Position numbers and translations under genes: made by a program
IMG/VR virus record: IMGVR_UViG_3300046063_000009
Strand: one strand, 5' to 3'
Length of the DNA: 56,695 bases
Origin: a virus
The notes under the pieces: generated by a model
The model's input: the letters and a program-made list of their open reading frames with translations, nothing else
Database searches by the model: none
Told to the model about the DNA's origin: nothing
Shown here: piece by piece, positions 8,798 to 56,695 of the stretch
Position numbering within the stretch: position 1 is the stretch's first letter
Layout: each line of letters opens with the position of its first letter

Positions 8798-9568
8798 TCA
8801 CTCCGCCTCGTACCCGGACGAACCAGCAGCACCGTCCGGGCCGGGCTCGGCCTCGGCCTCGGCGTCGGCGTCGGGGTTGGAAACCTCGATACTGCTGCCG
8901 TCCTCGAGGCCCACCTGGTCGGGCGAGGCTCCGACGAGTTGGGCGTGCTCGATGCCGGGCATTGAGTTGAGATCGACGCCAGCATAGACCTTCGCCTCGC
9001 TGATCCGGTGGTCCATCTCGCCCTCGACGCGGATGTCGGCCTGGTCGGGGGCCTTATCTATCTCGCCGAAGCTCTGCCGCATCTCGATCTCGTCGTAGAC
9101 CTGCTCGGAGACCTGGGTGCGCTGGTGGCGCTCCTCGCGCGTCCATTTGATGATGTCCTGTTTGGCCTGGCCGAGCCTGGTACCGACCGTGCTAAGTTTC
9201 GCGCTGTACTCCGTCGCGGTCATGCCTACGTCGTCGGGGTTGAGGCGCTGGAGGCGCTTCATCTCCTCTTGGAGCTCTTTCACCCGGTCCTCAGCCGCTT
9301 TGCGCTCTTTCCGGGCGGTGCTCGCCAGTTGCTCGAAGCTCTCGGTCTGCGAGCGGTGCTGATACATCAGAAAGCCAGTCCGCTGCTCGAAGCTCGCCGT
9401 CGTGGCTACCTCGTCAACCCACTGATCCATTCGTCCATCGTCCTTCTCGACGGCGTTCACTGAGACGCCGAACTCCTGGGCCAAGCGCTCGCAGCGCTGC
9501 GTGAACCCGACGCCCATCCGCGTCAGTTGTAAGTGCTGCTCACGCCGCTGGCGCAACTCTTTCCGCAT
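8798..9568 (-). CDS. Putative small terminase / DNA-binding packaging protein (position-based)
   Basis: Lies upstream of terL. N-terminal HTH-like GVGFTQRCERLAQEFGVSVNAVEKD, a coiled-coil middle and an acidic tail. Trimmed to the ATG at 9568. Confidence 0.4.
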   Translation of the reverse strand: MRKELRQRREQHLQLTRMGVGFTQRCERLAQEFGVSVNAVEKDDGRMDQWVDEVATTASFEQRTGFLMYQHRSQTESFEQLASTARKERKAAEDRVKELQEEMKRLQRLNPDDVGMTATEYSAKLSTVGTRLGQAKQDIIKWTREERHQRTQVSEQVYDEIEMRQSFGEIDKAPDQADIRVEGEMDHRISEAKVYAGVDLNSMPGIEHAQLVGASPDQVGLEDGSSIEVSNPDADAEAEAEPGPDGAAGSSGYEAE

Positions 9569-9677
9569 GATACCTTTTATCGCCGCGCTCTCGGTAAAAA
9601 GAACCCGGCACGAAGGGGGTGCGTGCAGCACGGCCAGCGCTGCCGTCCACCGGCCGGCGCTCCGATCTCTCCTGGCG

Positions 9678-9873
9678 ACTGACAGCGCACCCGGTCGAAT
9701 CGCTACCCGGAGGTGAGATCGAGCTGTCAGGCGTTAAGTAGGGGGCGCGGCAGCACTGACAGCGCTGCCGAGGGGATGGTGTGAGCGGTCGCTCGCGCCG
9801 GGGTGGGAGGCTACTTAAACACTGACAGCGGCGATCGATGGCTGGCTCCCGGTTCGGTGGGGAGCGCTGTCAG
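9678..9873. repeat. Array of five CTGACAGCG / CGCTGTCAG motifs with nested inverted repeats
   Basis: Motif copies at 9678-9687, 9723-9730 (inverted), 9754-9764, 9821-9830 and 9865-9873 (inverted). Inverted repeat GCTGTCAGgcgTTAAGTAG (9723-9741) / CTACTTAAacaCTGACAGC (9811-9829). Palindrome GGCAGCACTGACAGCGCTGCC (9749-9769). Confidence 0.8.
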
Positions 9874-10712
9874 CCCGCAGGGGAAGCGTCCGTGTGCTCG
9901 CCCTCCCCCTCGGGGACCACCCGATCGACGTAATTCACATACTTGATCCACTCGCGCATATCGTGCTCATCGATGTCGCGGTGGCGACCATCGGCGTAGT
10001 GCAGGTACGGCCGATAGCTCTCGATCGAGTGGCCGGTGAAGTCGAAGATCGTCGCCGTACCGAACGAACTCCCCTTCCAGCTCCGGCTATCCACCGAGTC
10101 GAAGGGGTGGCGCGAGCAGGAGGTAGCACTCCATGGAGTGTAGCCGAGCCCGTGGATCTTACAGTCGTGCTCGTGAGCGCGCTCGATAAACCAGGGGAAA
10201 TGCTTGTAGCTTCGTGGTTTGATCTCGTTTCCCGCTCCCGACCCGATCCCGCCGATCGCCACGTAATCGTAGCGCCGAACGAGGTCGAGAAACGCATCGC
10301 GGCCCCTGGTCGCGTGCCAGACGGGGATGCACGGTTTCCCGGCCTCAGATTCCAGGTGCTCGCGGATCTCGCGCACCGGCTCGGGGTCGTAGTCGAAGAT
10401 TGCATCCAGGTCCATGCCGAGGAAGAGGTCGATCTCGTGGCGCTTGACGCACTCCGCATACCCTTCGGCGTACTCGAACCAGTCGATCTCGTCCGGGTTG
10501 CCAGCCTTCTCGGAGCCACGCATGAACGTGTACGCACCGCTGTCGAGCATGAACGACTCCGGGGGAGCCTGTGGGTCGGGTTCGAGGAAAAGATCGCGTT
10601 GCCAGTCCTTGAGGTAGGCGTAGCTCTCGAGAAGGTACGGCGGATCGAGCACGCACTGCCGACCATCGAACAGAAAGTGTGCGCCGTGGGTCGCAGCGAG
10701 GTAGAGCTTCAC
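9870..10712 (-). CDS. dpdA: DpdA-like DNA-guanine transglycosylase (TGT superfamily)
   Basis: 280 aa with FMLDSGAYTF and VAIGGIGSG motifs. It is the last gene of the preQ0-synthesis operon. GTG start in a GTGA overlap with the upstream stop. Confidence 0.7.
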   Translation of the reverse strand: MKLYLAATHGAHFLFDGRQCVLDPPYLLESYAYLKDWQRDLFLEPDPQAPPESFMLDSGAYTFMRGSEKAGNPDEIDWFEYAEGYAECVKRHEIDLFLGMDLDAIFDYDPEPVREIREHLESEAGKPCIPVWHATRGRDAFLDLVRRYDYVAIGGIGSGAGNEIKPRSYKHFPWFIERAHEHDCKIHGLGYTPWSATSCSRHPFDSVDSRSWKGSSFGTATIFDFTGHSIESYRPYLHYADGRHRDIDEHDMREWIKYVNYVDRVVPEGEGEHTDASPAG

Positions 10713-11680
10713 GAGTCCTCGTCCTCGTTGCTACCGTCTTCATCGTCTCCATCGGAGTCGTCTTGTCGATCGTCTGACGAGCCCTCTAAGACGGCCTCCG
10801 TTGGAGCCTGCGCAGCACCGGCCTCGTCGGCATCGGTAGGCGGATCGACCACGCTAATCTCGAACTCGTCGCCACACTCGGGACAGCGCACGGCGAGCAG
10901 TTCGGCTCTCTCGCCGCTGTCATCGGCGTCCGCGCTCGGTGCGTCCTCGTCGAGGTCAGTAGTGCCGTCCTCGCTGTCGGCGCTGCTGTCGCCGCTGCTG
11001 TCGCCGGCTGTGGCTGCCTCGGAGTCGCCGTCGCTGCCGTTGCTCTCGTCGCTCGGAACCGTCGATGGAATGACGCGCACACCTTCGACGCGCTTTCGAT
11101 CAGGCGAGTGGTCGGCGTCCGGTAGCTCCTCGGGGTGGTCGGTGGCTTCGTCGTCCTCGTCTTGGGTTTCGCTCGGCGGGGTCGGGTCCACCTCCTCGAA
11201 GAACTCGTCGATGTCGTATAGCCCCTGCTCGATCATCTCGTCCACTTCGTCGCTGGTGAAGCCAGTAGTATCAACAGCGAGGTCATCGACGTCAGCCAGT
11301 TCGCTGAGTTCGATCTGGAGGTTGTCGTAGTTCCAAATGGAGTCGAACGCGGTCTTGTTATCCGCGATCCGCGCTGCGCGTACTTCCTCCGGCGAGAGAT
11401 CGTCGCGAACCATGATCGGGACGCGATCGAGTCCAAGATCGAGCGCCGCTAACCGCCGCCCGTGACCTTTGATGATAACGCGCTCCTCGTCTACGACGAT
11501 CGGCTGATCCCAACCACTGAGGATCGATTTCTTCAGGTCGGCGATTTGCTTCGGTGGGTGATCCTGGGGATTCTGCTCGTAGGGGTTGATCGACTCCAGC
11601 GGGACGATCTCGACGTCAGTGTGCATCCGCACGTCTGGTGTCTCGCCGTCGTCTCCGTCCTCGCCGTCGCTATCGCTCAC
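10709..11680 (-). CDS. ParB/Srx-domain protein (DpdB-like) with an acidic linker and a C-terminal zinc-ribbon motif
   Basis: IVPLESINPYEQNPQDHPPKQIADLKKSILSGWDQPIVVDE..IIKGHGRRLAALDLG is a ParB N-terminal domain signature. RCPECGDEFEI near the C-terminus. GTG start at 11680 (alternative ATG at 11626). Confidence 0.65.
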   Translation of the reverse strand: MSDSDGEDGDDGETPDVRMHTDVEIVPLESINPYEQNPQDHPPKQIADLKKSILSGWDQPIVVDEERVIIKGHGRRLAALDLGLDRVPIMVRDDLSPEEVRAARIADNKTAFDSIWNYDNLQIELSELADVDDLAVDTTGFTSDEVDEMIEQGLYDIDEFFEEVDPTPPSETQDEDDEATDHPEELPDADHSPDRKRVEGVRVIPSTVPSDESNGSDGDSEAATAGDSSGDSSADSEDGTTDLDEDAPSADADDSGERAELLAVRCPECGDEFEISVVDPPTDADEAGAAQAPTEAVLEGSSDDRQDDSDGDDEDGSNEDEDS

Positions 11681-12297
11681 CGTGCGTCACCTCCCTGCTG
11701 CGTAGACAGTGAGAGGAGATCGAGGACTTCGCCTTTGATTTCGGGGTCGGAGCGCGCCTCGCCACGCAGCGCGCTCGTCCGGGTAGTGGAGTTCGGTTCG
11801 CGCACGCCGCGCAGGCGCATACAGTCGTGGGTCGCCTCGATCACGACCACGACCGCGACCGGCGATAGCTCCTCGTGGATAGCATCGGCGACCTGCGTAG
11901 TGAGGCGCTCCTGTACCTGTGGGCGTCGTGCGTAGCCGTCCACGACCCGCGCGAGCTTCGAGAGCCCGACGATCCGCTCGGCAGGGATGTACCCGACGTG
12001 CGCGCACCCGGTGAACGGGAGGAAGTGGTGGGCACACATAGAGGCGACTTCGATGTGGTCGACCAGCACGAGTTCGTCCGTGGCATCCTCAGTGAAGGCG
12101 GTACGCAGGTGCTCGCGCGGATCGACCTGGAGACCGCCGAGCAGTTCATCAATGCGAGAGCCGGCGACCCGCTCGGGGGTCTGTGCCAAGTGCTCAGAGT
12201 CAAGATCGATGCCGATGGCGTCCATGAACGCAGCGAAGTGCTCTGCTGCGGCGTCGTGATCGGGCGACAGGGTTCCGGTAGCGCTGGATTCAGTCAT
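11677..12297 (-). CDS. folE: GTP cyclohydrolase I
   Basis: VASMCAHHFLPFTGCAHVGYIP...GLSKLARVVDGYARRPQVQERLTTQVADAI is the canonical FolE core. ATGA overlap with queE. Confidence 0.9.
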   Translation of the reverse strand: MTESSATGTLSPDHDAAAEHFAAFMDAIGIDLDSEHLAQTPERVAGSRIDELLGGLQVDPREHLRTAFTEDATDELVLVDHIEVASMCAHHFLPFTGCAHVGYIPAERIVGLSKLARVVDGYARRPQVQERLTTQVADAIHEELSPVAVVVVIEATHDCMRLRGVREPNSTTRTSALRGEARSDPEIKGEVLDLLSLSTQQGGDAR

Positions 12298-13091
12298 ACG
12301 CCAACCGCCTGATCCCAGAGGTTCACCTGTAACCGCGGAGAGAAGCGCCAGCCACGCTCCTTACAGATCGCCGCCACCTCCGGCGCGGCCGCGCGGAGCT
12401 GTTCGCGGGTCGCGCCGGCTGGCATGAGCTGCACGCGCTCAGGGTTGATCGAGAACCGATCGATTAGCGCGTCGATCTCGGCAAGCCCTGGATCATCGTG
12501 ACCGGCGAGAACGAACTTCCAGCTCACGCGCTCCTCACCTGTGTAGGAGCGAACGGCTTCGGATCGGATTCGCTTGGCCTCGCTCATCCCCGAGTTCGAG
12601 AGCTTCAGGCTCACGTTGTATCGGTCGATCCACGAATCGAGTGGCCCGGCCGTCCGGTCGATAGTGCCGTTCGTCTCAATCTCGGTAGTGAGCACGTCCG
12701 CATCGCGCAGCAGCGCCATGAGCGATAGCTGATGGAGCATCGGTTCGCCACCAGTAATGACCAGGTGCGCCCCACCGGATCGGAGGCGATCGAGCCAACC
12801 GCGAGCCTCCCAGTGCGTCAGTAGGTCATCGATAGTCCACTCGTCGGCGCTACGCCACGTTTCGATTGTATCACAGACCCACGTCGCGCCCGCCTCGGCG
12901 TTCGGCTCCAGCTCATCTTGTGAGCGGTCGGGATCGGGCGGCGCTCCACAGAGCAGGTTACACCCGCCAGTACGCAAGAACACCGCCGGAGTACCAGCGT
13001 GCGGTCCCTCACCCTGGATTGAGTAGAACGTCTCGGCGACCGGGAGCGATGCTGAAGTGAGATCGTCGGATGCTGGTCTCGGATCACTCAC
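12294..13091 (-). CDS. queE: 7-carboxy-7-deazaguanine synthase (radical SAM)
   Basis: ETFYSIQGEGPHAGTPAVFLRTGGCNLLC is the QueE N-terminal signature. GTG start overlapping the queD stop. Confidence 0.85.
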   Translation of the reverse strand: MSDPRPASDDLTSASLPVAETFYSIQGEGPHAGTPAVFLRTGGCNLLCGAPPDPDRSQDELEPNAEAGATWVCDTIETWRSADEWTIDDLLTHWEARGWLDRLRSGGAHLVITGGEPMLHQLSLMALLRDADVLTTEIETNGTIDRTAGPLDSWIDRYNVSLKLSNSGMSEAKRIRSEAVRSYTGEERVSWKFVLAGHDDPGLAEIDALIDRFSINPERVQLMPAGATREQLRAAAPEVAAICKERGWRFSPRLQVNLWDQAVGV

Positions 13092-13566
13092 TGACTCTCA
13101 CCTCGGCAGTGACCGCGTACTTCGACGTCTCGTATAGCGTCAGTCTGACTCCCTGCACCGCGTCGTGCTCGTACACTAAGCGCCGCGCCATCCACCAGAC
13201 CAGCGTCTCGCAGGTCGGGTCGGTCTCGAAGGTGTGGACGCGCTCGGCGGCCTGCCCCTCGATGTCGCCGGAGGCGAGCACGTCGGCGAGGGGGTCGTCC
13301 TCGAACAGCAGCACCGCGTGATCCACCGCGTCGAGCGTATCGCGGAGGTCCTTGAGATCGACCGGCATCGCTCTAGTAGCGCCATCGGGGTCGGTACTGG
13401 GGTCGGGGTCCATCATGGAGACGACCGCTGCGAGTTCCCAGCGTAGGTTATGACCGTGGACGCTCCCGCAGGCTCCATCGTACTCGAACAGTCGGTGGGC
13501 CGTGCTCGTGCTCTGCTCGACGGTAAGCACGCGCTCGTCGGGATCGAGATCTGTGTCAGTTGGCAT
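13084..13566 (-). CDS. queD: 6-carboxy-5,6,7,8-tetrahydropterin synthase
   Basis: HRLFEYDGACGSVHGHNLRWE (QueD/PTPS His motif), 160 aa, within the operon. Confidence 0.8.
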   Translation of the reverse strand: MPTDTDLDPDERVLTVEQSTSTAHRLFEYDGACGSVHGHNLRWELAAVVSMMDPDPSTDPDGATRAMPVDLKDLRDTLDAVDHAVLLFEDDPLADVLASGDIEGQAAERVHTFETDPTCETLVWWMARRLVYEHDAVQGVRLTLYETSKYAVTAEVRVSE

Positions 13567-15076
13567 ACTCGATCACCTCCCCAGCGCCGTTGATCCGAAA
13601 CGCCGTCTTCCGCATGAAGCACGGTCCGCACTCCCCGCAGTGGAGCTCGCCGTCTTCGTAGCACGACCAGGTAAGATCGAGTGGCGCACCGAGATCGAGC
13701 CCCCGCCCGACGATCTCGTGTTTCATCAGGTTGCCCACCGGCATCGATACGTCTACGTGAGCGTCCGCGGCCGTCGCGTAGGGCAGCACGTCGGCGAAGC
13801 AGTCAATGAAGGCCATCTCGTTGTCGGGGAACGCGCCGGCTTCCTCGAGATTGTTCCCGAGAGCGAGGACGTCGTAGCCCTGCGCTTCGGCGATACCGGT
13901 AGCGACCGAGAGCATGAGCAGGTTGCGAGCGGGCACCCACTCGTGCGCGAACTCCGCGCCCTCCTCGCCACCGGCTATCGCAGCCGCCTCCTCGCTGGCA
14001 GCGTCACCGTTGCCAGCCAGCAGCGCCGATCCGCCGATCATGTCGTAGACATCGGTATCGGCGACCAGCAGCGGGACGCCGAGACGGTTCGATATTTTCT
14101 CGACTGCTGCGCGCTCGGAGTCCTCCGATCGGTGGCGATAGGAGAAGTGCAGCAGCGTCACGTCATAGCCCTCAGCGAGCATCTGCGAGGCGACCGTCGT
14201 GGAGTCCAGGCCGCCCGAGGCGATGACCAGCGCTCGCGCGCTCTCGCTCCCGCTCTCATCGTGCCTCGAAGCGTGGCTGTCGAACGCCGGCATCGGCGTC
14301 GGCGGCGCGAGCGAGTGCGTGCGGATCTCCTCGTCAGTGATCGTGGTCAGCGTGTAGGGGTCGATCTCGCGCGTCGAGATCCCGCCGGCATAGAGGCCGT
14401 CCTGGTCGGGCGGGAGCGAGGCGCGGAGGTAGCGCTCCGACGATGAGAAATAGAGCGTCCCCAGGTGGTCGTCGTACATGAGCGCGAGGGGCTTGTAGTT
14501 GCACGCCAGATGGAGGCGATCGGGGTGCTCGCGGTCGAGCACCGCCAGCGCGTAGGAGCCGACCACCTCGTTGACCAGGATGTCGCGCAGGTCCTCGTCG
14601 CTCCCGTCCCACGTCGCGGCGAGCAGGCATGGCAGGACTGCCGTATCGATCTCGCTCACTGGATCGAGGTCATACGCTTCGCGCAGCTCGTCGTCGTTAG
14701 CGATCGTCCCGTTGTGACTCACCCAGTAGCGCCCGCTCGGATCGGGGAAGGGCTGAACGTCGCTATCCGGGTCCTTCTGCTCGACGTACTCAGTGGTCGG
14801 CTCCGCGCGATTGTTATTGATGATCGCCCTGGCAGCAGTGAACCCGAGCGCTTCGGGCTTTGTCGAGCCGGCGGCCCGGAGCGGGGCAGTCGCGTCATCG
14901 GGGTGGCCGACCTCGCGATTGAGGCCGACCCCGCCCTCGGGAGTGATGCCGACGTACCCACAGGAGTCGCGCCCACGGTCGGCGGCGGCCTCGATCACCG
15001 TTGCGAGACGTGAGAGCCTGGCCGGAGCGAGGTCGTCAGGAGGGTGTCGAACGAACAGTCCGCTGATCGAGCACAT
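13556..15076 (-). CDS. queC: Glutamine amidotransferase (class II, Ntn) fused to 7-cyano-7-deazaguanine synthase (Gat-QueC)
   Basis: Starts MCSISGLF (catalytic Cys2). The C-terminal half has ALVIASGGLDSTTVA (PP-loop) and WSCYEDGELHCGECGPCFMR (QueC zinc site). Confidence 0.85.
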   Translation of the reverse strand: MCSISGLFVRHPPDDLAPARLSRLATVIEAAADRGRDSCGYVGITPEGGVGLNREVGHPDDATAPLRAAGSTKPEALGFTAARAIINNNRAEPTTEYVEQKDPDSDVQPFPDPSGRYWVSHNGTIANDDELREAYDLDPVSEIDTAVLPCLLAATWDGSDEDLRDILVNEVVGSYALAVLDREHPDRLHLACNYKPLALMYDDHLGTLYFSSSERYLRASLPPDQDGLYAGGISTREIDPYTLTTITDEEIRTHSLAPPTPMPAFDSHASRHDESGSESARALVIASGGLDSTTVASQMLAEGYDVTLLHFSYRHRSEDSERAAVEKISNRLGVPLLVADTDVYDMIGGSALLAGNGDAASEEAAAIAGGEEGAEFAHEWVPARNLLMLSVATGIAEAQGYDVLALGNNLEEAGAFPDNEMAFIDCFADVLPYATAADAHVDVSMPVGNLMKHEIVGRGLDLGAPLDLTWSCYEDGELHCGECGPCFMRKTAFRINGAGEVIEYAN

Positions 15077-15089
15077 GACAGTATGCGAA

Positions 15090-15117
15090 CTACCCGAGCG
15101 ACCGAGGGTAAATATTG
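15090..15117 (-). promoter_or_regulatory. Promoter candidate for the deazaguanine operon
   Basis: Coding strand reads CAATATTTACCC...CGGGTAG, 13 nt before the ATG at 15076. It shares the CGGGTAG element with the conserved promoters. Confidence 0.4.
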
Positions 15118-15181
15118 TGAGTCTAACGGTTCGAATAAAAGGCGTAGGGAGGTCGTAACTCCGGCAGCGTTGGCGCTCCGG

Positions 15182-15400
15182 TTAGGTAGCGTCGCCCTGC
15201 TCGTCGTCCAGCACGGACGGATCGGGACCGACGATCACACTGCTGGTCGCGGTAGTATCGAAGCGAACATCACAGGAGTAGCAGCGGTACTCGCCGGCTA
15301 CCGCGTCCGCGCCGACGTGGCCCACCGCCTCGGAACCACACAACGGGCATGGAGGCTCCGGCGAGGCATCGCCCCGATCGCACGACGGATCGTTACCCAT
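15182..15400 (-). CDS. Zinc-ribbon protein (72 aa)
   Basis: CPLCGSE...CYSCD; ATG start; acidic. Confidence 0.7.
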   Translation of the reverse strand: MGNDPSCDRGDASPEPPCPLCGSEAVGHVGADAVAGEYRCYSCDVRFDTTATSSVIVGPDPSVLDDEQGDAT

Positions 15401-15785
15401 CGTCGGCGGCGCTGTCCTCGGCGGGATCGGAGGCGTCCGAGAACAAGAAGCGCCCGGCAGCCTGGTCGCCGGTGAGCGTCACCTGATCCTCGTCGACGTC
15501 GGCGAACAGCGGTGCCTGCTTGTCGGCAGACTGCCGGTCGGGTGCGCCAGTATCGGCGCGATCATCGACGCCGAACTCGCTGGCAGTAGGCCGATCGGTG
15601 ACCGACTCGGGATCGCCCGGATCGACTTGCGCTCCGTAATCGGTGAGCGAGCTTGGCGCGTCGGTCGGCGCTTCGACGGTCGCTCGACCAGCACCATCGA
15701 CGGCGAACTCGTGCTGCACATCGATAGCGGGGTGTGACCGATTCCCCTCGGCAGTGATATCGGCGTCCTCATCGCCCTGGGCCAT
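15393..15785 (-). CDS. Hypothetical highly acidic protein (130 aa)
   Basis: ATG at 15785, start/stop overlaps on both sides, D/E-rich. Confidence 0.7.
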   Translation of the reverse strand: MAQGDEDADITAEGNRSHPAIDVQHEFAVDGAGRATVEAPTDAPSSLTDYGAQVDPGDPESVTDRPTASEFGVDDRADTGAPDRQSADKQAPLFADVDEDQVTLTGDQAAGRFLFSDASDPAEDSAADDG

Positions 15786-16069
15786 CAGCTCTCGACCTCC
15801 TCGGAGGCGGAGTCGGCGTCGGTATCGGTGCTCGCCTGCTCGCCGTCGGCGTCATAGCGCTCGCGGCGGACGGAGCACTCGTCGAGCGAGCGGTGGGTAT
15901 CGACGTGGTTACAGACCGTGCACCGATAGATCTCGCGCGTCGATCCGCTGGGGTACTCGACGGTCTCGGCTTCGTAATCGTGGCGCGTCTCGGCGAACTC
16001 CGCCCGGCTCATCTCCGCGTCCTCGTCCTCGACGGGCAAACCGTCGAACGGGTGGGTGTAGAGTCGCAT
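15785..16069 (-). CDS. Small Cys-containing protein (94 aa)
   Basis: Trimmed to the ATG at 16069 (MRLYTHPFDGLPVEDEDAE...CTVCNHVDTHRSLDEC), giving an ATGA overlap with the upstream gene. Confidence 0.65.
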   Translation of the reverse strand: MRLYTHPFDGLPVEDEDAEMSRAEFAETRHDYEAETVEYPSGSTREIYRCTVCNHVDTHRSLDECSVRRERYDADGEQASTDTDADSASEEVES

Positions 16070-16671
16070 CACGCCACCTCCAGCTCCTGCTCCTGCTCCT
16101 GCTCTCGATCGCGGGTGCGTGCTCGTGGCTGCACCGCTGCGAGCCACACGTCGTACTCATCGATCTCAGCAGCGGCGCACCGCGTCGCGTCCATGCACGC
16201 CGGGCAGGGGAGGCGTGGGCCGAGCGGGCCGTCACACCGCGAGTCGTTATCGGTGGGACAGCCGTGTTCCGCAGCGAAGCGGGCAACCTGTGCGACCGTC
16301 CGGGTCACGCGCTGGTCGGGGTCGATCAGGGCGACCAGCGAAGCGCGCAGCAGGTGCTTACAGCCGAGACCGCGATACTCGCAGTCGGGGCAGGTACACG
16401 CGCCGGTTGCGAGATCGACGCGGTAGGTGTCGGTCTCGCTGCCGTCGCCGGTCGCGGCGACATCCACCAGGCCCCCCGCGTCGGGGGTGGGAACGACAGC
16501 GAGGATCGGAGCCTGTAAGCAGGCGCGCTCGTAGCGGCCAGTCTCGATCGCGGCGGCGGTCAACTCGGAGTGCTCCGGGGCGAGCTGTGGCTCACTGGTC
16601 GTGGTTGTCGGGTCGGACGATACAGCGTCAGCTTCTTTGTCGGGGGTTGTGTTCGATGCCATGCGTACCAT
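16069..16671 (-). CDS. SWIM zinc-finger protein
   Basis: CTCPDCEYRGLGCKHLLRA fits the SWIM CxCxnCxH pattern, and further Cys clusters follow downstream. Confidence 0.65.
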   Translation of the reverse strand: MVRMASNTTPDKEADAVSSDPTTTTSEPQLAPEHSELTAAAIETGRYERACLQAPILAVVPTPDAGGLVDVAATGDGSETDTYRVDLATGACTCPDCEYRGLGCKHLLRASLVALIDPDQRVTRTVAQVARFAAEHGCPTDNDSRCDGPLGPRLPCPACMDATRCAAAEIDEYDVWLAAVQPRARTRDREQEQEQELEVA

Positions 16672-35693: not shown

Positions 35694-36314
35694 TCAGTAG
35701 TAGACACGGGTCAAGTCAAAGAAGCCGGAGTAGTATACGTTAGCATCCATTGAGTAGCAGAGCCCTATTCCACCACCCGCCGAGTAGCGGTTACCATCAG
35801 TGTGCGTCAGATCGGGAGCTGATCGATCGAACGTATCCTTCCCATCGATTCCTGCCGTACTCGACTCTTGGATCCGAACAGAAAAATCTCCAGCAGAGTT
35901 CTCCCAGCCAACGAATCTAGTGTCTCTGTTATCATTGTACCCGTCTGAGATGGTACCAGCGTCAACCCGAGCGACCCGCGTTAGCTGAATGAAACCATTA
36001 CCATCACGTCCGTCAGCATACCCGAGCACCGCAGATTCGCTGGCATCCAGGACAGCGAAGTAAAAATGACTACCATCGATAGCTCGAAAGATCGCCCCTG
36101 AATAAACGTGGTTTCGCATAAACGTCCGTATCTCGCCTTCGGCTGGAGCAGAACTGGAACTCCCGTCATTGACTATCCAAGCCTCTTCACCACCTGACTC
36201 TGAGAAAGTCAAACACGCTTCTCCGTCAACCACGCCCTTCCCTGAACTGCTTGATACGTGCCCTGGTGGATCTGTGCTATAGCCATCGTATTGAGTCCAA
36301 TCAACGAGCGACAT
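35694..36314 (-). CDS. Fibre-associated protein, possibly a concanavalin-A-like lectin/LamG fold
   Basis: Last gene of the tail module, lower GC, beta-rich Gly/Ser/Asp composition. The fold assignment is a guess. Confidence 0.55.
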   Translation of the reverse strand: MSLVDWTQYDGYSTDPPGHVSSSSGKGVVDGEACLTFSESGGEEAWIVNDGSSSSAPAEGEIRTFMRNHVYSGAIFRAIDGSHFYFAVLDASESAVLGYADGRDGNGFIQLTRVARVDAGTISDGYNDNRDTRFVGWENSAGDFSVRIQESSTAGIDGKDTFDRSAPDLTHTDGNRYSAGGGIGLCYSMDANVYYSGFFDLTRVYY

Positions 36315-36338
36315 TTTAGCAGTGTAAAGGCCTTGTAT

Positions 36339-36707
36339 TTAACTCTCCCACGATTCGGTCGTCTGTCGACTAGGGGTAGCAGGGGGTATCTCCTCCCAGG
36401 AATCGCTATCAGCAACCGCTCCGAAGCCAGGGGGTATCTCCTCCCACCCCTCAAAGGGTACCGCTCCACTCTTCGATACCGGCGTTCCCGAGACGGAGAC
36501 GTATGAGTCGCCACCACCGTCCAGCAGCGACTCGCCAGAGATGAACTCATAGTCGTGCTCGCCAACGCCGAGGGGCACCCGATCACCTGATTGAAACACA
36601 TACGTCGAGGCTGCCGAGATCTGCCCGTCGATGCCGATGAGCTGGAGGCCGAAGTCCGGCGGTCCCGGTTCCTCCCAGCGTTCGACGGTTTCGAGCGTGC
36701 CGACCAT
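36339..36707 (-). CDS. Hypothetical tail-module protein (122 aa) with an internal WEEIPP duplication
   Basis: The 19-nt repeat cagggggtatctcctccca occurs at 36380-36398 and 36428-36446. ATG at 36707. Confidence 0.65.
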   Translation of the reverse strand: MVGTLETVERWEEPGPPDFGLQLIGIDGQISAASTYVFQSGDRVPLGVGEHDYEFISGESLLDGGGDSYVSVSGTPVSKSGAVPFEGWEEIPPGFGAVADSDSWEEIPPATPSRQTTESWES

Positions 36708-36811
36708 TAGTTCTGTACCTCACCGTCGTATCGGTCGATCTGCTCGCCGACCATCATTGCTCGCTTCTGGTATTGGGTTGTATGGTGTGACATGGTTACT
36801 ACCTCGTGCAT
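36707..36811 (-). CDS. Small ORF (34 aa), tentative
   Basis: MHEVVTMSHHTTQYQKRAMMVGEQIDRYDGEVQN. It fills the gap between the fibre stop (36822) and the next start, with a TAATG-type overlap. Confidence 0.3.
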   Translation of the reverse strand: MHEVVTMSHHTTQYQKRAMMVGEQIDRYDGEVQN

Positions 36812-36821
36812 AGTGAGCAGC

Positions 36822-39023
36822 TCACCGCAGCGGTTGATATTGGACTCTGACATCAACACTGGCGCTTCCCTCTGTCTCTGAAAGCACAACCGCCCAGTTC
36901 CCAGCCGATTCGTCGTAATAGACTTTATCAACCGTTACTCCCACGTCCGATAGCCCTCCCCGCCCCGCCACGCTCACATCGAACTCGGACGGTTGGATCG
37001 GTCTAGAAAGTGCAGTCAAATCGGCGAACGAAAGCGTTGCTGAACCGCCGGCAGAGATCGTAGCAGTCTGGGTTTTGCTAATCGGATCGGCAAATCGCAT
37101 ATCCTCCTGACAGAGAAGCCCGGCAGCATACCCATCAGCTGTCGACCCGTCGAAATAGTTGACAGCCACATCGTCCGAATGCCCCCAGTACACACTTTGT
37201 CCCGAGCTGTTAGGACTAGAACTGATATTCACTTCTCCATTGTTGAATGTCGCTCCCCCTTTTCTTCCAATATGCCCGACATAGGTATTCGAGAAATTGC
37301 TCTGGAACCGGATCGCTTCGTCGTATTCAGCGTCTTGACAAACAATATATTCATAGATTGAGAGCCCAGTCCCTGAATCAACGACTGTAGAGGCCCCCGA
37401 AAGAGCTTTCTCATGCTTTATTTCGTTAATTCTGATTCGATGGTTGCTTCCAGAGAGGCGCACCATCGTCGTCGTGTCAGACTGGGATTCCTGTGCTATC
37501 GATTCAAAGCGCGCTTCCAATCCCGAATTGTTAACGTTGAGAACAATACTGTCGTCTTCTGGTCGGACGAGAATCGGCCCACACTCGATCGAATGAGCGC
37601 CTCCTCCGTTTGCATGAATGAAGCGGCCAGTATAGCTGAAGGCCGATAACTGCCCCCACCGAGCTGTAAATGGCCCAAATGAATCCAGATGGATCACGGG
37701 GTCAGTCCAGTTGGCGAAGCGAACACGGCCGAGATTGAAATGGCGGGCGTTAGCTCCAGAGAAATGGATCGCACTGCCGCCAGTCCGATCCACGTAACTT
37801 GAGCCGTCGAAGTTTAGATCGGTCATGAAGGCTCTCGCAGCGTCATTGAAACCTGAAACATCGAGACCATCGGCCGCTAAATCAGTCATCTCGATTATGG
37901 TCTCGCCGATCCCACGGCCAATGAGGCTCTTCCCGCCGAGACCGCTCAGCGTCGCTGCTTCCGTTATCCGTTTGGATGGAAGCAAAATTATTCCGTTCTG
38001 CGATCCCGAGCCGGTACCGTTAATTGCATCGATGGCATCTTGGACGGGGGTTGTGGTCGCAGTGGGGTCTATCGCATCGATGGCCCCCAATCCCTCCGCA
38101 ATCGGAACGACAAGTCCATCCCAGGCGGCTTGGATGTTGCTGTTGGCTATGTCGTTGACTACCTGCTCTGTAGTTACCGACGTGAGCGGGGTCGTCCCGC
38201 CGAGAGCCTGCCCGTCGTGGCGGTGGCTCGTATCCGATTTTCCATCGAGTTCCTGTTTCCTCCCGACGTCGCTCGCTGTACTCGGCGCGGAGCTTACCCG
38301 TGCTGCCGAGAGTTCTGCACGGGCGTTCTGAATACCACCCGCTCCATCGCTCTCGGCGTACAACCGGGCGAGCGGCGTCCCGTCGATCGCCAGGTCGTAG
38401 CTCTGCTCCGTCCCTGCTGCTGCGTTCCCGTCTACCGGCGCATCGACGATCGCTCCATAGCCACCGGGGTTCGTCCCGAGGTCGTGCGGGAAGGCGTTCT
38501 TCGACACCCGGTCGTCCAACTCACCGACCACGCCTTCTACCGTTCCGGCCTGAAAGTCTCCATCAGAATCGGTGACGACGGTACTCTCGGCATCCTGATG
38601 TTGAGCACGCCAGTTATGTACGTACCCGTCGGGAAGTACATCGTCAAATCCCTGCGGGACGTAGACGACGCCGAGTAGGAGTTCGTCGCCCTGGAGCGTC
38701 GCCGGCTCAGGTGCGGCGGCTGGCGTTCCGGCGCGAAGACCGATCGTACTGGCCGCCGTATCGAAATAGATGGTATCCCAACGGTCGTAGGTCCCATCCC
38801 CGACACCGACGGTGAGACTCGTCCCGCTCGCGCTCGCCTCGGTACCGAGGTAAACTGCCGTCCCACCACCGACGTCAACCTCACGCACGTTCGCCGTTGG
38901 CGAGATTTCGAAGTCGACCGGGGCTCGTACCCCGTTCCCGGCCAGCCCCTCTGTCACCGCACGGAGCTGTACCTCGAATAAGGGATTGCCCTGCGGCCAG
39001 TCGAAGCCCGGAGCGTTCGGCAT
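36822..39023 (-). CDS. Tail fibre / tailspike with a right-handed beta-helix (pectate-lyase-like) C-terminal part
   Basis: 733 aa. GIILLPSKRITEAATLSGLGGKSLIGRGIGETIIEMTD followed by repetitive beta-helix-like turns. The C-terminal half has clearly lower GC. Confidence 0.65.
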   Translation of the reverse strand: MPNAPGFDWPQGNPLFEVQLRAVTEGLAGNGVRAPVDFEISPTANVREVDVGGGTAVYLGTEASASGTSLTVGVGDGTYDRWDTIYFDTAASTIGLRAGTPAAAPEPATLQGDELLLGVVYVPQGFDDVLPDGYVHNWRAQHQDAESTVVTDSDGDFQAGTVEGVVGELDDRVSKNAFPHDLGTNPGGYGAIVDAPVDGNAAAGTEQSYDLAIDGTPLARLYAESDGAGGIQNARAELSAARVSSAPSTASDVGRKQELDGKSDTSHRHDGQALGGTTPLTSVTTEQVVNDIANSNIQAAWDGLVVPIAEGLGAIDAIDPTATTTPVQDAIDAINGTGSGSQNGIILLPSKRITEAATLSGLGGKSLIGRGIGETIIEMTDLAADGLDVSGFNDAARAFMTDLNFDGSSYVDRTGGSAIHFSGANARHFNLGRVRFANWTDPVIHLDSFGPFTARWGQLSAFSYTGRFIHANGGGAHSIECGPILVRPEDDSIVLNVNNSGLEARFESIAQESQSDTTTMVRLSGSNHRIRINEIKHEKALSGASTVVDSGTGLSIYEYIVCQDAEYDEAIRFQSNFSNTYVGHIGRKGGATFNNGEVNISSSPNSSGQSVYWGHSDDVAVNYFDGSTADGYAAGLLCQEDMRFADPISKTQTATISAGGSATLSFADLTALSRPIQPSEFDVSVAGRGGLSDVGVTVDKVYYDESAGNWAVVLSETEGSASVDVRVQYQPLR

Positions 39024-56006: not shown

Positions 56007-56695
56007 TCTCCGTCACCGCCTGGAGCCAGCGAGATGTCGTCCGTGGTCATGCGGGACTTCTGCTCGTCCTGCTCGAACTCGGGATCGAACACGCTCTTAC
56101 GGACGACCTGGTTGCCGTCCTCGTCGGTCTCGAGGTCGTCGTCGTCGAGCCCGAGTATGGACTTGACAGCGCTTGTCGCGCCCTTCTCCGCACCCTTCTC
56201 GGCAGCTTCCTCTGCTACCTCGTCGACGTCCACCTCCGTGTGCTCTTTCTCGTCGTCGTCCTCGCCACCCTTGGTGCCGCTCGCGCCGCTCTCGGCACCG
56301 CCGGATTCGTCGTCGTCCTCACCTTCGGAGTCCTTATCGACCTGCTCGTGCAGCGTCGAGATCTCCGCCTCAGCCGAGTCCATCCGCTCGGCGAGGTCTT
56401 CCTGCTTGGAGACGAGATCCTCCTGGGTATCCTGTACGTTCGTTGCGATGTCGTTCGTCTTCTGGGTCAGGTCGTGGATGTCGCTGAGGGAAACCTCGTC
56501 CTCGCCGCTCTCCTTGCCTGACTCCTCGTCCTCGTCAGTCATGGGTATGCTTTTGAACTGCGTATGGAGTGTATCGGCAGCGCTAGCGAGACAGCGCCGC
56601 GCTTCCGCTTCGCTGGCGCGCTTCGCTGCTGCTCGCTCGTCTGCTGTCTCTTTCGCCGGAGCCTCGGAGCCCTCGCCAGGGATGTCGATCTCTGC
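56003..56695 (-). CDS. Protease-scaffold fusion, C-terminal part (continuation of 1-754 across the circular junction)
   Basis: The frame of track ORF 56003..56542 stays open upstream through 56543-56695 (...AKETADERAAAKRASEAEARRCLASAADTLHTQFKSIP-MTDEDEE...). The C-terminal part is hyper-acidic and coiled-coil-like. Confidence 0.7.
   Translation of the reverse strand, partial: AEIDIPGEGSEAPAKETADERAAAKRASEAEARRCLASAADTLHTQFKSIPMTDEDEESGKESGEDEVSLSDIHDLTQKTNDIATNVQDTQEDLVSKQEDLAERMDSAEAEISTLHEQVDKDSEGEDDDESGGAESGASGTKGGEDDDEKEHTEVDVDEVAEEAAEKGAEKGATSAVKSILGLDDDDLETDEDGNQVVRKSVFDPEFEQDEQKSRMTTDDISLAPGGDGE
56641..56695. repeat. Terminal direct repeat, right copy
   Basis: Identical to nt 1-55. 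Confidence 0.97.

Follow-up and report, generated by a model that had tools for sequence, protein, structure and literature searches.

A predicted 7-deazaguanine DNA-modification operon with a ParB-linked transglycosylase in an uncultured haloarchaeal tailed virus

The window analyzed here is the whole 56,695-nucleotide stretch of the virus record IMGVR_UViG_3300046063_000009 (IMG/VR). On its minus strand, between positions 9870 and 15076, lies an operon of six consecutive, intact open reading frames (ORFs) encoding a fusion of a glutamine amidotransferase with QueC (Gat-QueC), QueD, QueE, FolE, a ParB-like protein, and a DpdA-like transglycosylase (Table 1). Neighboring genes overlap by 11, 8, 4, 4, and 4 nucleotides (nt), from gat-queC to dpdA. 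The original prediction for this DNA had claimed six consecutive minus-strand genes linked by overlaps of 4 to 11 nt, and its coordinates agree exactly with the ORF list of the window. The motifs that it quoted are all found in the translations (MCAHHFLPF and QVQERLT in FolE, CGSVHGHN in QueD, the QueE motif, and SGGLDS in Gat-QueC), as is the zinc site assigned to QueC (C472-x7-C480-x2-C483-x2-C486). It had also read the whole route from GTP to 7-cyano-7-deazaguanine (preQ0) in these genes, and FolE, QueD, QueE, and QueC are indeed all intact, with strong family matches. On this contig, the gene calls of JGI/Logan are concordant for the boundaries of Gat-QueC and QueD and for the start of queE, the remaining operon falling outside that locus. 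The sole non-coding gap at the operon head, with TATA-like elements 33 to 64 nt before the gat-queC ATG, contains an AT-rich patch that we consider a putative archaeal promoter.

Table 1. Genes of the operon and its putative promoter (positions in the window)
Feature	Position	Strand	Length	Basis of assignment
gat-queC	13556-15076	minus	506 aa	Pfam and phrog_10428
queD	13084-13566	minus	160 aa	Pfam PTPS and phrog_2389
queE	12294-13091	minus	265 aa	phrog_2076
folE	11677-12297	minus	206 aa	Pfam and NCBIfam FolE
parB-like	10709-11680	minus	323 aa	phrog_620 and fold
dpdA	9870-10712	minus	280 aa	phrog_887, profile and fold evidence
Putative archaeal promoter (AT-rich patch; TATA-like elements TTTTATT and AATATTTA)	15100-15145	minus		read from sequence

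An exact 55-bp direct terminal repeat (positions 1-55 and 56641-56695) is present at both ends of the window, which is therefore a circularly assembled, complete genome of ca. 56.64 kb. By gene content, this is an archaeal tailed virus: it encodes a portal and a large terminase, a tail-tube protein, a primase-helicase of the D5 type, and a TFIIB-like transcription factor; the GC content is 64%, and the encoded proteins are strongly acidic. The morphogenesis genes are collinear with those of HHTV-2, a Haloarcula virus of the Saparoviridae, with identities of 51% for the major capsid protein, 47% for the portal, 50% for the large terminase, and 59% for the tail tube. By this shared collinear module we place the virus, which is uncultured, among the haloarchaeal tailed viruses in a Saparoviridae-like lineage. 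The 33 kb of HHTV-2 covering the equivalent region contain neither que genes nor DpdA. No match was obtained for positions 1 to 25000 by megablast against 50,697 phage records, and a sensitive blastn search of positions 9000 to 16000 against the phage collection recovered just short QueC/Gat-QueC segments at ca. 70% identity. We found one single near relative in IMG/VR, a 15.6-kb contig (L004) whose DpdA is 98% identical. Another contig (L022) has a DpdA 45% identical and ends before any queC. The identical Gat-QueC protein is also recorded in the SRA run SRR18079254. No tRNA genes were found in the window. Among cultured archaeal tailed viruses, the pathway has been described only in the Druskaviridae, plus a lone DpdA in HRTV-29 (PMC8651126).

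The enzymes for the first steps of preQ0 synthesis are clearly identifiable. FolE matches its Pfam family at 1.2e-62 and NCBIfam FolE at 8e-64, over the cut-off of the latter, and has the CAHH motif and the downstream Cys. QueD matches Pfam PTPS (1e-12) and phrog_2389 (1.5e-17) and retains the Cx3HGH motif (CGSVHGH), while QueE matches phrog_2076 (1.9e-55), its NCBIfam QueE matches being weak. Identities to the halovirus HCTV-5 are 62% (FolE), 40% (QueD), and 46% (QueE), and those to the phage 9g are 52%, 24%, and 32%, respectively, so that all three proteins group as halovirus-type enzymes. In QueE, the cysteines C44, C48, and C73 are invariant (alignment A2) and form an unusual cluster motif, C-x3-C-x24-C. 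The halovirus QueEs have an acidic insertion of 19 to 24 residues between the second and third radical-SAM cysteines, C-x3-C-x(19-24)-C, whereas those of bacterial phages have the usual C-x3-C-x2-C without insertion. The cluster motif spans residues 44 to 73 of the window protein, and the insertion is found also in L011 (10781-11566), L092 (7301-8092), L093 (6617-7414), and L022 (155-919). HVTV-1, which belongs to the same family as HCTV-5, has ca. 30% of its G replaced by 2'-deoxy-7-aminomethyl-7-deazaguanosine (dPreQ1); the insertion variant would thus be functional if the HVTV-1 QueE carries the same insertion.

The transglycosylase gene belongs to phrog_887 (7.8e-42) and has no match in Pfam, NCBIfam, or PADLOC (including no PADLOC DpdA). 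Its homologues, ca. 1,500 proteins of roughly 245 aa, are nearly all unannotated, and the family profile gathers 535 clusters (50% identity) at E ≤ 1e-30 and 2,703 at E ≤ 1e-10. The original prediction had called it a DpdA-type member of the tRNA-guanine transglycosylase (TGT) superfamily, and it does group with phage DNA transglycosylases. The family alignment (A1) aligns with 9g DpdA by hhalign with 98.6% probability (E 1.3e-15), its hidden Markov model retrieves the DpdAs of 9g and EC151 in hmmsearch at 2.8e-21 and 9e-22, and BLASTP gives 22.6% identity to 9g DpdA over 252 aa (E 6.7e-11). Identities of 34 to 45% inside the clade, versus ca. 23% to 9g, mark it as a separate one. The AlphaFold2 (AF2) model is a TIM barrel (mean predicted local distance difference test score [pLDDT], 84). 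Its top matches in the PDB by Foldseek are Cap10 (9ntn) and the Z. mobilis-type bacterial TGT (E 7e-5 to 8e-4, TM score ca. 0.5), a modest likeness, with other TIM barrels close behind in the list; in BFVD, the top structure matches are phage DpdAs. Searching the PDB by sequence with the protein, the family profile, or 9g DpdA gave only chance matches, so the link to TGT rests on the fold and on the bridge via phage DpdA.

Invariant residues in A1 are D57 (LDSGAF), D101/D103, H133 (IPVWH), and D205/D208 (FDSVDS). H133 aligns with the His of the 9g "lpcfH" motif, an active-site His that is absent in DpdA2, and by spacing and motif type these residues match Asp95/Phe99, Asp130, His181, and Asp256 of the Salmonella DpdA (PMC10164549). 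Loss of the Asp residues and grouping with ArcTGT, two of the outcomes that the original prediction had named as speaking against it, were thus not what we found, since the acidic and His residues are kept and the protein falls among the DNA transglycosylases. There is no Zn subdomain (CxCxxC...H), no Cys being invariant in A1 and the protein ending ca. 70 residues past the last barrel motif, and no added tRNA-binding domain either, only the 280-aa TIM-barrel core. From its alignments, we assign the protein as a compact relative of DpdA1 within a large ParB-linked clade, for which no description was found in the searchable literature. Two other DpdA types were tried and rejected. For DpdA4 (DUF6610, PF20314), a subfamily that has been attributed exclusively to archaeal viruses, the window protein has no Pfam match and A1 gave 0.14% by hhalign against HCTV-5 gp68, which as a control matches DUF6610 at 2.9e-59; for DpdA2, the comparison with nt-1 YP_008125322 gave 0.5% by hhalign and E > 1 by BLASTP. 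For DpdA3 (the phiST/Campylobacter type, CGPG_00065), there was no match in the 18.6-kb CPt10 region around QueC, outside which DpdA3 may lie. Among species-representative genomes, no haloarchaeal one has this DpdA clade.

The gene preceding dpdA encodes a ParB-like protein (phrog_620, 7.7e-44; Pfam ParB_N 1.4e-5 and 25.5 bits, just below the 26.3-bit cut-off). In its AF2 model, residues 20 to 162 are folded as a ParB/Srx nucleoside triphosphate (NTP)-binding domain followed by an acidic, disordered tail, and Foldseek ranks the CTPase folds of Noc, ParB, and KorB (E ca. 1e-6) highest among PDB entries. The Box II P-motif GxxRxxA (G72, R75, A78; GHGRRLA in the window) is at least 85% conserved in 74 partner proteins and invariant in alignment A4. 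After the NTP-binding fold, the model has no recognizable DNA-binding or dimerization domain. The tail itself (10709-11200, residues ca. 165 to 323) is predicted to be disordered except for a single short beta-hairpin with a CPECG knuckle at residues 261 to 276 (pLDDT ca. 78). In most cases, the ParB partner in this DpdA clade has only ca. 160 to 180 aa and no such tail.

The pairing of this protein with DpdA is widely conserved. Of 87 loci of viral or metagenomic origin (IMG/VR and others), 83 have a ParB_N gene directly upstream of dpdA and on its strand; it overlaps or abuts dpdA in 38 of those 83, often by 4 nt. The same position is occupied in 67 of 75 loci from GTDB species-representative genomes, which are mostly Clostridia, Bacteroidales, and Veillonella, prophage-like in appearance, plus one Archaeoglobus metagenome-assembled genome (MAG). 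Overall, the adjacency holds in ca. 150 of 162 loci, bacterial and archaeal-viral, regardless of the neighboring genes. Downstream of the pair, the surveyed loci have either a YhhQ-type preQ0 transporter or QueC-QueD-QueE-FolE, and the window and its 98% relative are the only ones with a Gat domain. The cultured virus that comes closest is the Fusobacterium phage phiFN37, in which ParB and DpdA overlap likewise. When the literature was searched for the combination of DpdA and ParB, only the bacterial system came up, and DpdA is mentioned neither in PMC13229309 nor in a recent survey of the ParB-CTPase fold; we have not found the pairing described in the searchable literature.

Two side observations come from the same survey. 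The Archaeoglobus MAG (JACDNT010000021, L009/L098; 7474-9435) has ParB-DpdA-YhhQ in a virus-like region, beside genes for a terminase, a portal, and a TFIIB-like protein, i.e., a second archaeal lineage with ParB-linked DpdA that relies on preQ0 salvage. Also, a DUF6884 (PF21818) gene is often found immediately downstream of ParB-linked dpdA (L002:8805-9239, L007:8744-9154, L013, L015, L017, L052, L055-L057, L069, L084, L088), and another one is near DpdA4 at L092:15276-15743. DUF6884 is a candidate component of viral 7-deazaguanine systems; there is none in the window.

The same ParB module appears beside other DNA-modifying enzymes. The halovirus ParB_N domains of HHTV-2, HCTV-2, and eHP-27/28 are 46 to 54% identical to that of the window. 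In HHTV-2 (L001), the ParB gene (11128-11937; 46% identical) overlaps that of a TET-associated glycosyltransferase (TAGT; 11927-12790, Pfam TAGT 2e-30), and this virus may therefore glycosylate its own DNA. In HCTV-2, gp11 (P0271) is a fusion of ParB with an N6/N4 DNA methyltransferase, and the environmental halophages eHP-28 (P0342) and eHP-27 (P0359) have fusions of a C5-methyltransferase with ParB. It looks as if catalytic cassettes had been exchanged while the ParB adaptor stayed constant. We also considered HHTV2_22 as a diverged DpdA and discarded it (BLASTP E 0.7); it is the TAGT glycosyltransferase.

Regarding the tailoring step, Gat-QueC combines a class-II (N-terminal Cys2) glutamine amidotransferase with a QueC PP-loop ATPase (Pfam QueC 1.2e-53 and GATase_7 2.6e-13, also GATase_6; phrog_10428 1e-120). 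The claim that QueC occurs here only as a Gat fusion was confirmed, this being the sole QueC in the genome. We aligned the protein with the Gat-QueCs of Sulfolobales, Vulcanisaeta, a thaumarchaeon, and 9g (A3). The window protein keeps the invariant Cys2 (MCSISG), RGRD, RAEPTTE, and HNGxIAND of the Gat half; the PP-loop residues S287/G289/D291/S292/T293 (SGGLDST) and the Zn cysteines C472/C480/C483/C486 are also invariant. Its nearest relatives are metagenomic proteins (51 to 56% identity), and the next nearest matches with a named source are cellular proteins of Sulfolobales and other Thermoproteota (45 to 48%, full length), compared with ca. 38 to 40% for bacterial phage versions, including that of 9g. 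There was no protein of Halobacteria among the top 120 matches and no full-length match in archaeal viruses among the phage-collection matches listed. By similarity, we assign Gat-QueC to the archaeal cellular type, closest to that of Sulfolobales. The rest of the window has no homologue of QueF, YhhQ, DUF6884, DpdA4 (DUF6610), TAGT, or methyltransferases, which leaves the Gat domain as its sole tailoring function. When expressed in Escherichia coli, 9g dpdA alone put 2'-deoxy-preQ0 (dPreQ0) in the DNA, while 9g dpdA plus gat-queC gave deoxyarchaeosine (dG+) at 5 to 18% of G, dG+ being formed also in a queC deletion strain (PMC6884629), and it has been given as a general rule that phages with Gat-QueC carry dG+ (PMC10484667). 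The association of Gat-QueC with dG+, which the original prediction mentioned, is thus correct in the literature, and dG+ is, on balance, the base that we favor as the main one in this virus.

Incidentally, Gat-QueC may coexist with another tailoring enzyme. A 34-kb halovirus-like contig (L092, Logan SRR32481257; 6357-17893) encodes QueF, QueD, QueE, FolE, Gat-QueC (53% identical to that of the window), DUF6884, an adenine methyltransferase, and DUF6610/DpdA4, and it therefore has two different preQ0-tailoring enzymes in one virus.

The intact and coupled genes, the conserved motifs, the homology of DpdA, the precedent of 9g, and the ParB synteny together indicate that the operon is very probably a DNA 7-deazaguanine system. 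We consider it likely, with somewhat less confidence, that it is a self-protection system with dG+ as its product and the ParB-like protein as a DpdA accessory. According to this model, FolE would convert GTP to dihydroneopterin triphosphate (H2NTP), QueD would convert H2NTP to carboxytetrahydropterin (CPH4), QueE would produce 7-carboxy-7-deazaguanine (CDG) from CPH4, and the QueC half of Gat-QueC would turn CDG into preQ0; the enzymology of these four steps is established knowledge. The Gat half would then use glutamine-derived ammonia to form the archaeosine (G+) formamidine from the nitrile, an amidation that might come before or after insertion into DNA, in 9g as well. DpdA would swap G in the replicated viral double-stranded DNA (dsDNA) for the 7-deazaguanine base through a TGT-like double displacement in which an Asp is the nucleophile and a general acid/base takes part, and the result would be DNA with a sizeable fraction of its dG as dG+, resistant to host restriction enzymes. 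The ParB-like protein, translationally coupled to dpdA, would serve as an accessory subunit for loading DpdA onto DNA or holding it there, by analogy with DpdB and with the ParBs of thymine dioxygenases. In this scheme, we infer both the base carried by this virus and the role of ParB.

Several observations weigh against one or another part of this scheme. The ParB-like protein is probably part of the modification machinery, in keeping with reports that the bacterial DpdA has no activity unless the ParB-like ATPase DpdB is present (PMC10164549) and that one class of phage thymine dioxygenases depends on a ParB partner (PMC13229309). The conservation of its gene upstream of dpdA suggests that the DpdA of this clade does not act alone. 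Whether it is functionally required is a closer call, on which we lean slightly toward the negative. The gene sets of 9g, EC151, and Dp-1 include no ParB, and the 9g-type DpdA1 is active without any (PMC6884629), so a requirement for ParB is not general. Besides, the NTP-motif residues of the ParBs associated with 5-methylpyrimidine dioxygenases (5mYOX) are dispensable in vivo (PMC13229309). The ParB-like gene could be a resident one, unrelated to modification and involved in partitioning, regulation, or packaging, perhaps by binding the CGCTGTCAG repeats downstream of dpdA. HHTV-2, which has no DpdA, keeps the ParB domain at the corresponding place in its genome, DpdA1 enzymes work alone, and the motif cluster beside the pair, unique in the window, could be a parS-like site. 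We find this explanation unlikely, although it is the strongest of the alternatives, given that the adjacency to dpdA spans many bacterial phyla as well as archaeal viruses, that the module is joined again to DNA-modifying enzymes in HHTV-2, HCTV-2, and the eHP halophages, and that a domain with which such a protein would bind DNA or dimerize is not recognizable.

A second alternative accepts that the operon modifies viral DNA but has dPreQ0, dADG (2'-deoxy-7-amido-7-deazaguanosine), or a mixture as the product. Gat could merely feed ammonia to the nitrile-synthase reaction of QueC, as in asparagine synthetase B, whose architecture is also a class-II amidotransferase plus a PP-loop ATPase; the Gat part has an NCBIfam asn_synth_AEB match (1.6e-7), and a relative has a Pfam Asn_synthase match. 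Gat-QueC lacks biochemical characterization (PMC5699537), and gene content had predicted dG+ for HVTV-1 and Dp-1, both of which carry dPreQ1. Still, in E. coli, dPreQ0 and dG+ in DNA differed solely by the presence of the 9g Gat-QueC, the Gat-QueCs of Sulfolobales, the nearest cellular proteins, reportedly take the place of ArcS in the synthesis of tRNA archaeosine, and the residues common to the Sulfolobales and 9g proteins are all conserved in the window. We regard this second alternative as improbable.

A further weak point of the proposed dG+ system is the catalytic assignment of DpdA. The hhalign comparison of A1 with E. coli Tgt is non-significant (0.4%), though the local alignment pairs the expected motifs; in it, D205 aligns with the Tgt nucleophile ("MFDCV"), whereas only D208 is common to 9g DpdA, so that the residue-level match to the catalytic Asp of TGT is not secure.

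Last, haloarchaeal tRNAs contain archaeosine, as is generally known, and the cluster might mainly boost the preQ0/archaeosine supply of the host for its tRNA, with DNA modification being marginal. Such a role was once proposed for phages with que genes but no recognized DpdA (PMC6884629); it is extremely improbable here, where a DpdA-family gene is present and translationally coupled and its product lacks a tRNA-binding domain and a conserved Zn cluster, DpdA being now regarded as a signature of DNA modification, encoded by all viruses known to have 7-deazaguanines in DNA (PMC10516641).

Compared with known systems, the window is functionally the gene set of 9g in an archaeal virus, and the pathway itself is well known. 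Phage 9g (Queuovirinae) has the same five enzymatic functions (FolE, QueD, QueE, Gat-QueC, and DpdA1), with QueC solely as a Gat fusion, a Gat-QueC ca. 38 to 40% identical over the full length, and a homologous DpdA. The differences are the archaeal host, the single overlapping operon (in 9g the genes are interspersed with others), QueD and QueE that are much closer to the halovirus versions, and a DpdA of 280 versus 317 aa, 23% identical, preceded by a ParB gene that 9g does not have. The dPreQ1 cluster of the Druskaviridae (HVTV-1, HCTV-1, and HCTV-5) consists of FolE, QueD, QueE, QueC, QueF, and DpdA4 (DUF6610). It shares with the window the haloarchaeal hosts, the homology of FolE, QueD, and QueE, and the QueE insertion. 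However, its DpdA4 is unrelated in sequence to the window DpdA (hhalign 0.14%), and the window has no QueF, a Gat-QueC instead of a plain QueC, a ParB gene, and a different (Saparoviridae-like) lineage.

The bacterial Dpd system of Salmonella Montevideo (DpdA plus DpdB; PDB 7UI4) combines a TGT-like DNA transglycosylase with a protein of ParB-superfamily NTPase fold, DpdB being needed for the insertion of preQ0 (PMC10164549). The window ParB is not of the DpdB/DndB type, since it has no DpdB match in PADLOC or NCBIfam and has GxxRxxA in place of the DGQQR of the DndB/SspE-type family; its sole PADLOC match is the N terminus of a ParB-methyltransferase protein. The DpdC-K restriction components are not present in the window, and its DpdA is much smaller. 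The ParB-dependent 5-methylpyrimidine (thymine) dioxygenases (PNAS 2026, PMC13229309) resemble the window in having a short ParB-fold protein encoded beside a post-replicative base-modifying enzyme; these ParBs have no obvious DNA-binding domain and are needed for enzyme activity, but the enzymes are of the Fe/2-oxoglutarate dioxygenase class and the target base is T. Finally, the cellular Gat-QueCs of Sulfolobales/Thermoproteota, which have no ArcS, are the closest named homologues, with all invariant residues in common. They act in tRNA modification with ArcTGT, whereas in the window, which comes from a virus of Halobacteria, a DNA transglycosylase takes the place of that partner.

Three points are new here and open to testing: the archaeal setting, the mosaic origin, and the conserved partnership with ParB. 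The operon is not unique in nature, as illustrated by the 98% relative and by L092, with Gat-QueC, QueF, and DpdA4. The 7-deazaguanine DNA modifications are a major anti-restriction strategy of phages and act against Cas9 in vitro. The measured cases that we found in the literature for archaeal viruses are only dPreQ1 in HVTV-1 and traces of 2'-deoxy-7-carboxy-7-deazaguanosine (dCDG) in STSV-2. The operon represents a second, independent halovirus route, in which both the transglycosylase and the tailoring enzyme differ. It also shows that prophages of bacteria and viruses of archaea exchange the transglycosylase module. The ParB partner, being near-universal, offers a concrete and testable explanation for how a small DpdA might find or stay on dsDNA, and it ties viral DpdA to the DpdB dependence of the bacterial DpdA and to the ParB activation of phage thymine dioxygenases. 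The operon is also a possible source of halophile-adapted enzymes for putting archaeosine in DNA. More tentatively, and with rather more doubt than belief, we suggest that the DpdA clade comprises obligate two-component enzymes with a small ParB-fold NTPase, that ParB is a general, swappable adaptor of DNA modification, and that, among archaeal viruses, this is the first for which archaeosine is predicted from its own genes to be the main replacement of G, via an archaeal-type Gat-QueC.

Some other features surround the operon. Directly upstream of the promoter gap, there is an ORF for a 72-aa zinc-ribbon-like protein (CPLCG...CYSC; 15182-15400, minus strand) and, farther upstream, the gene of a SWIM zinc-finger protein (16069-16671, minus strand; Pfam 1e-5), both of which are kept in the relatives L004 and L175. 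At the other end, the intergenic region between dpdA and the ORF at 8798-9631 contains a cluster of the CGCTGTCAG motif (9676-9873), with four exact copies in both orientations, one of which runs over the stop codon of dpdA; the rest of the window has none. Within this region there is also an inverted repeat of 19 nt (9723-9741/9811-9829). The cluster is found after dpdA in L004 as well (positions 10852, 10895, and 11040) and, with the packaging genes just downstream, is a candidate pac, parS-like, or regulatory site. Far from the operon, the GC content dips to 0.54 (mean, 0.64) at positions 36001 to 38000, over an ORF (36822-39023) of 733 aa with no Pfam match, which may be a recent acquisition or a host-recognition gene.

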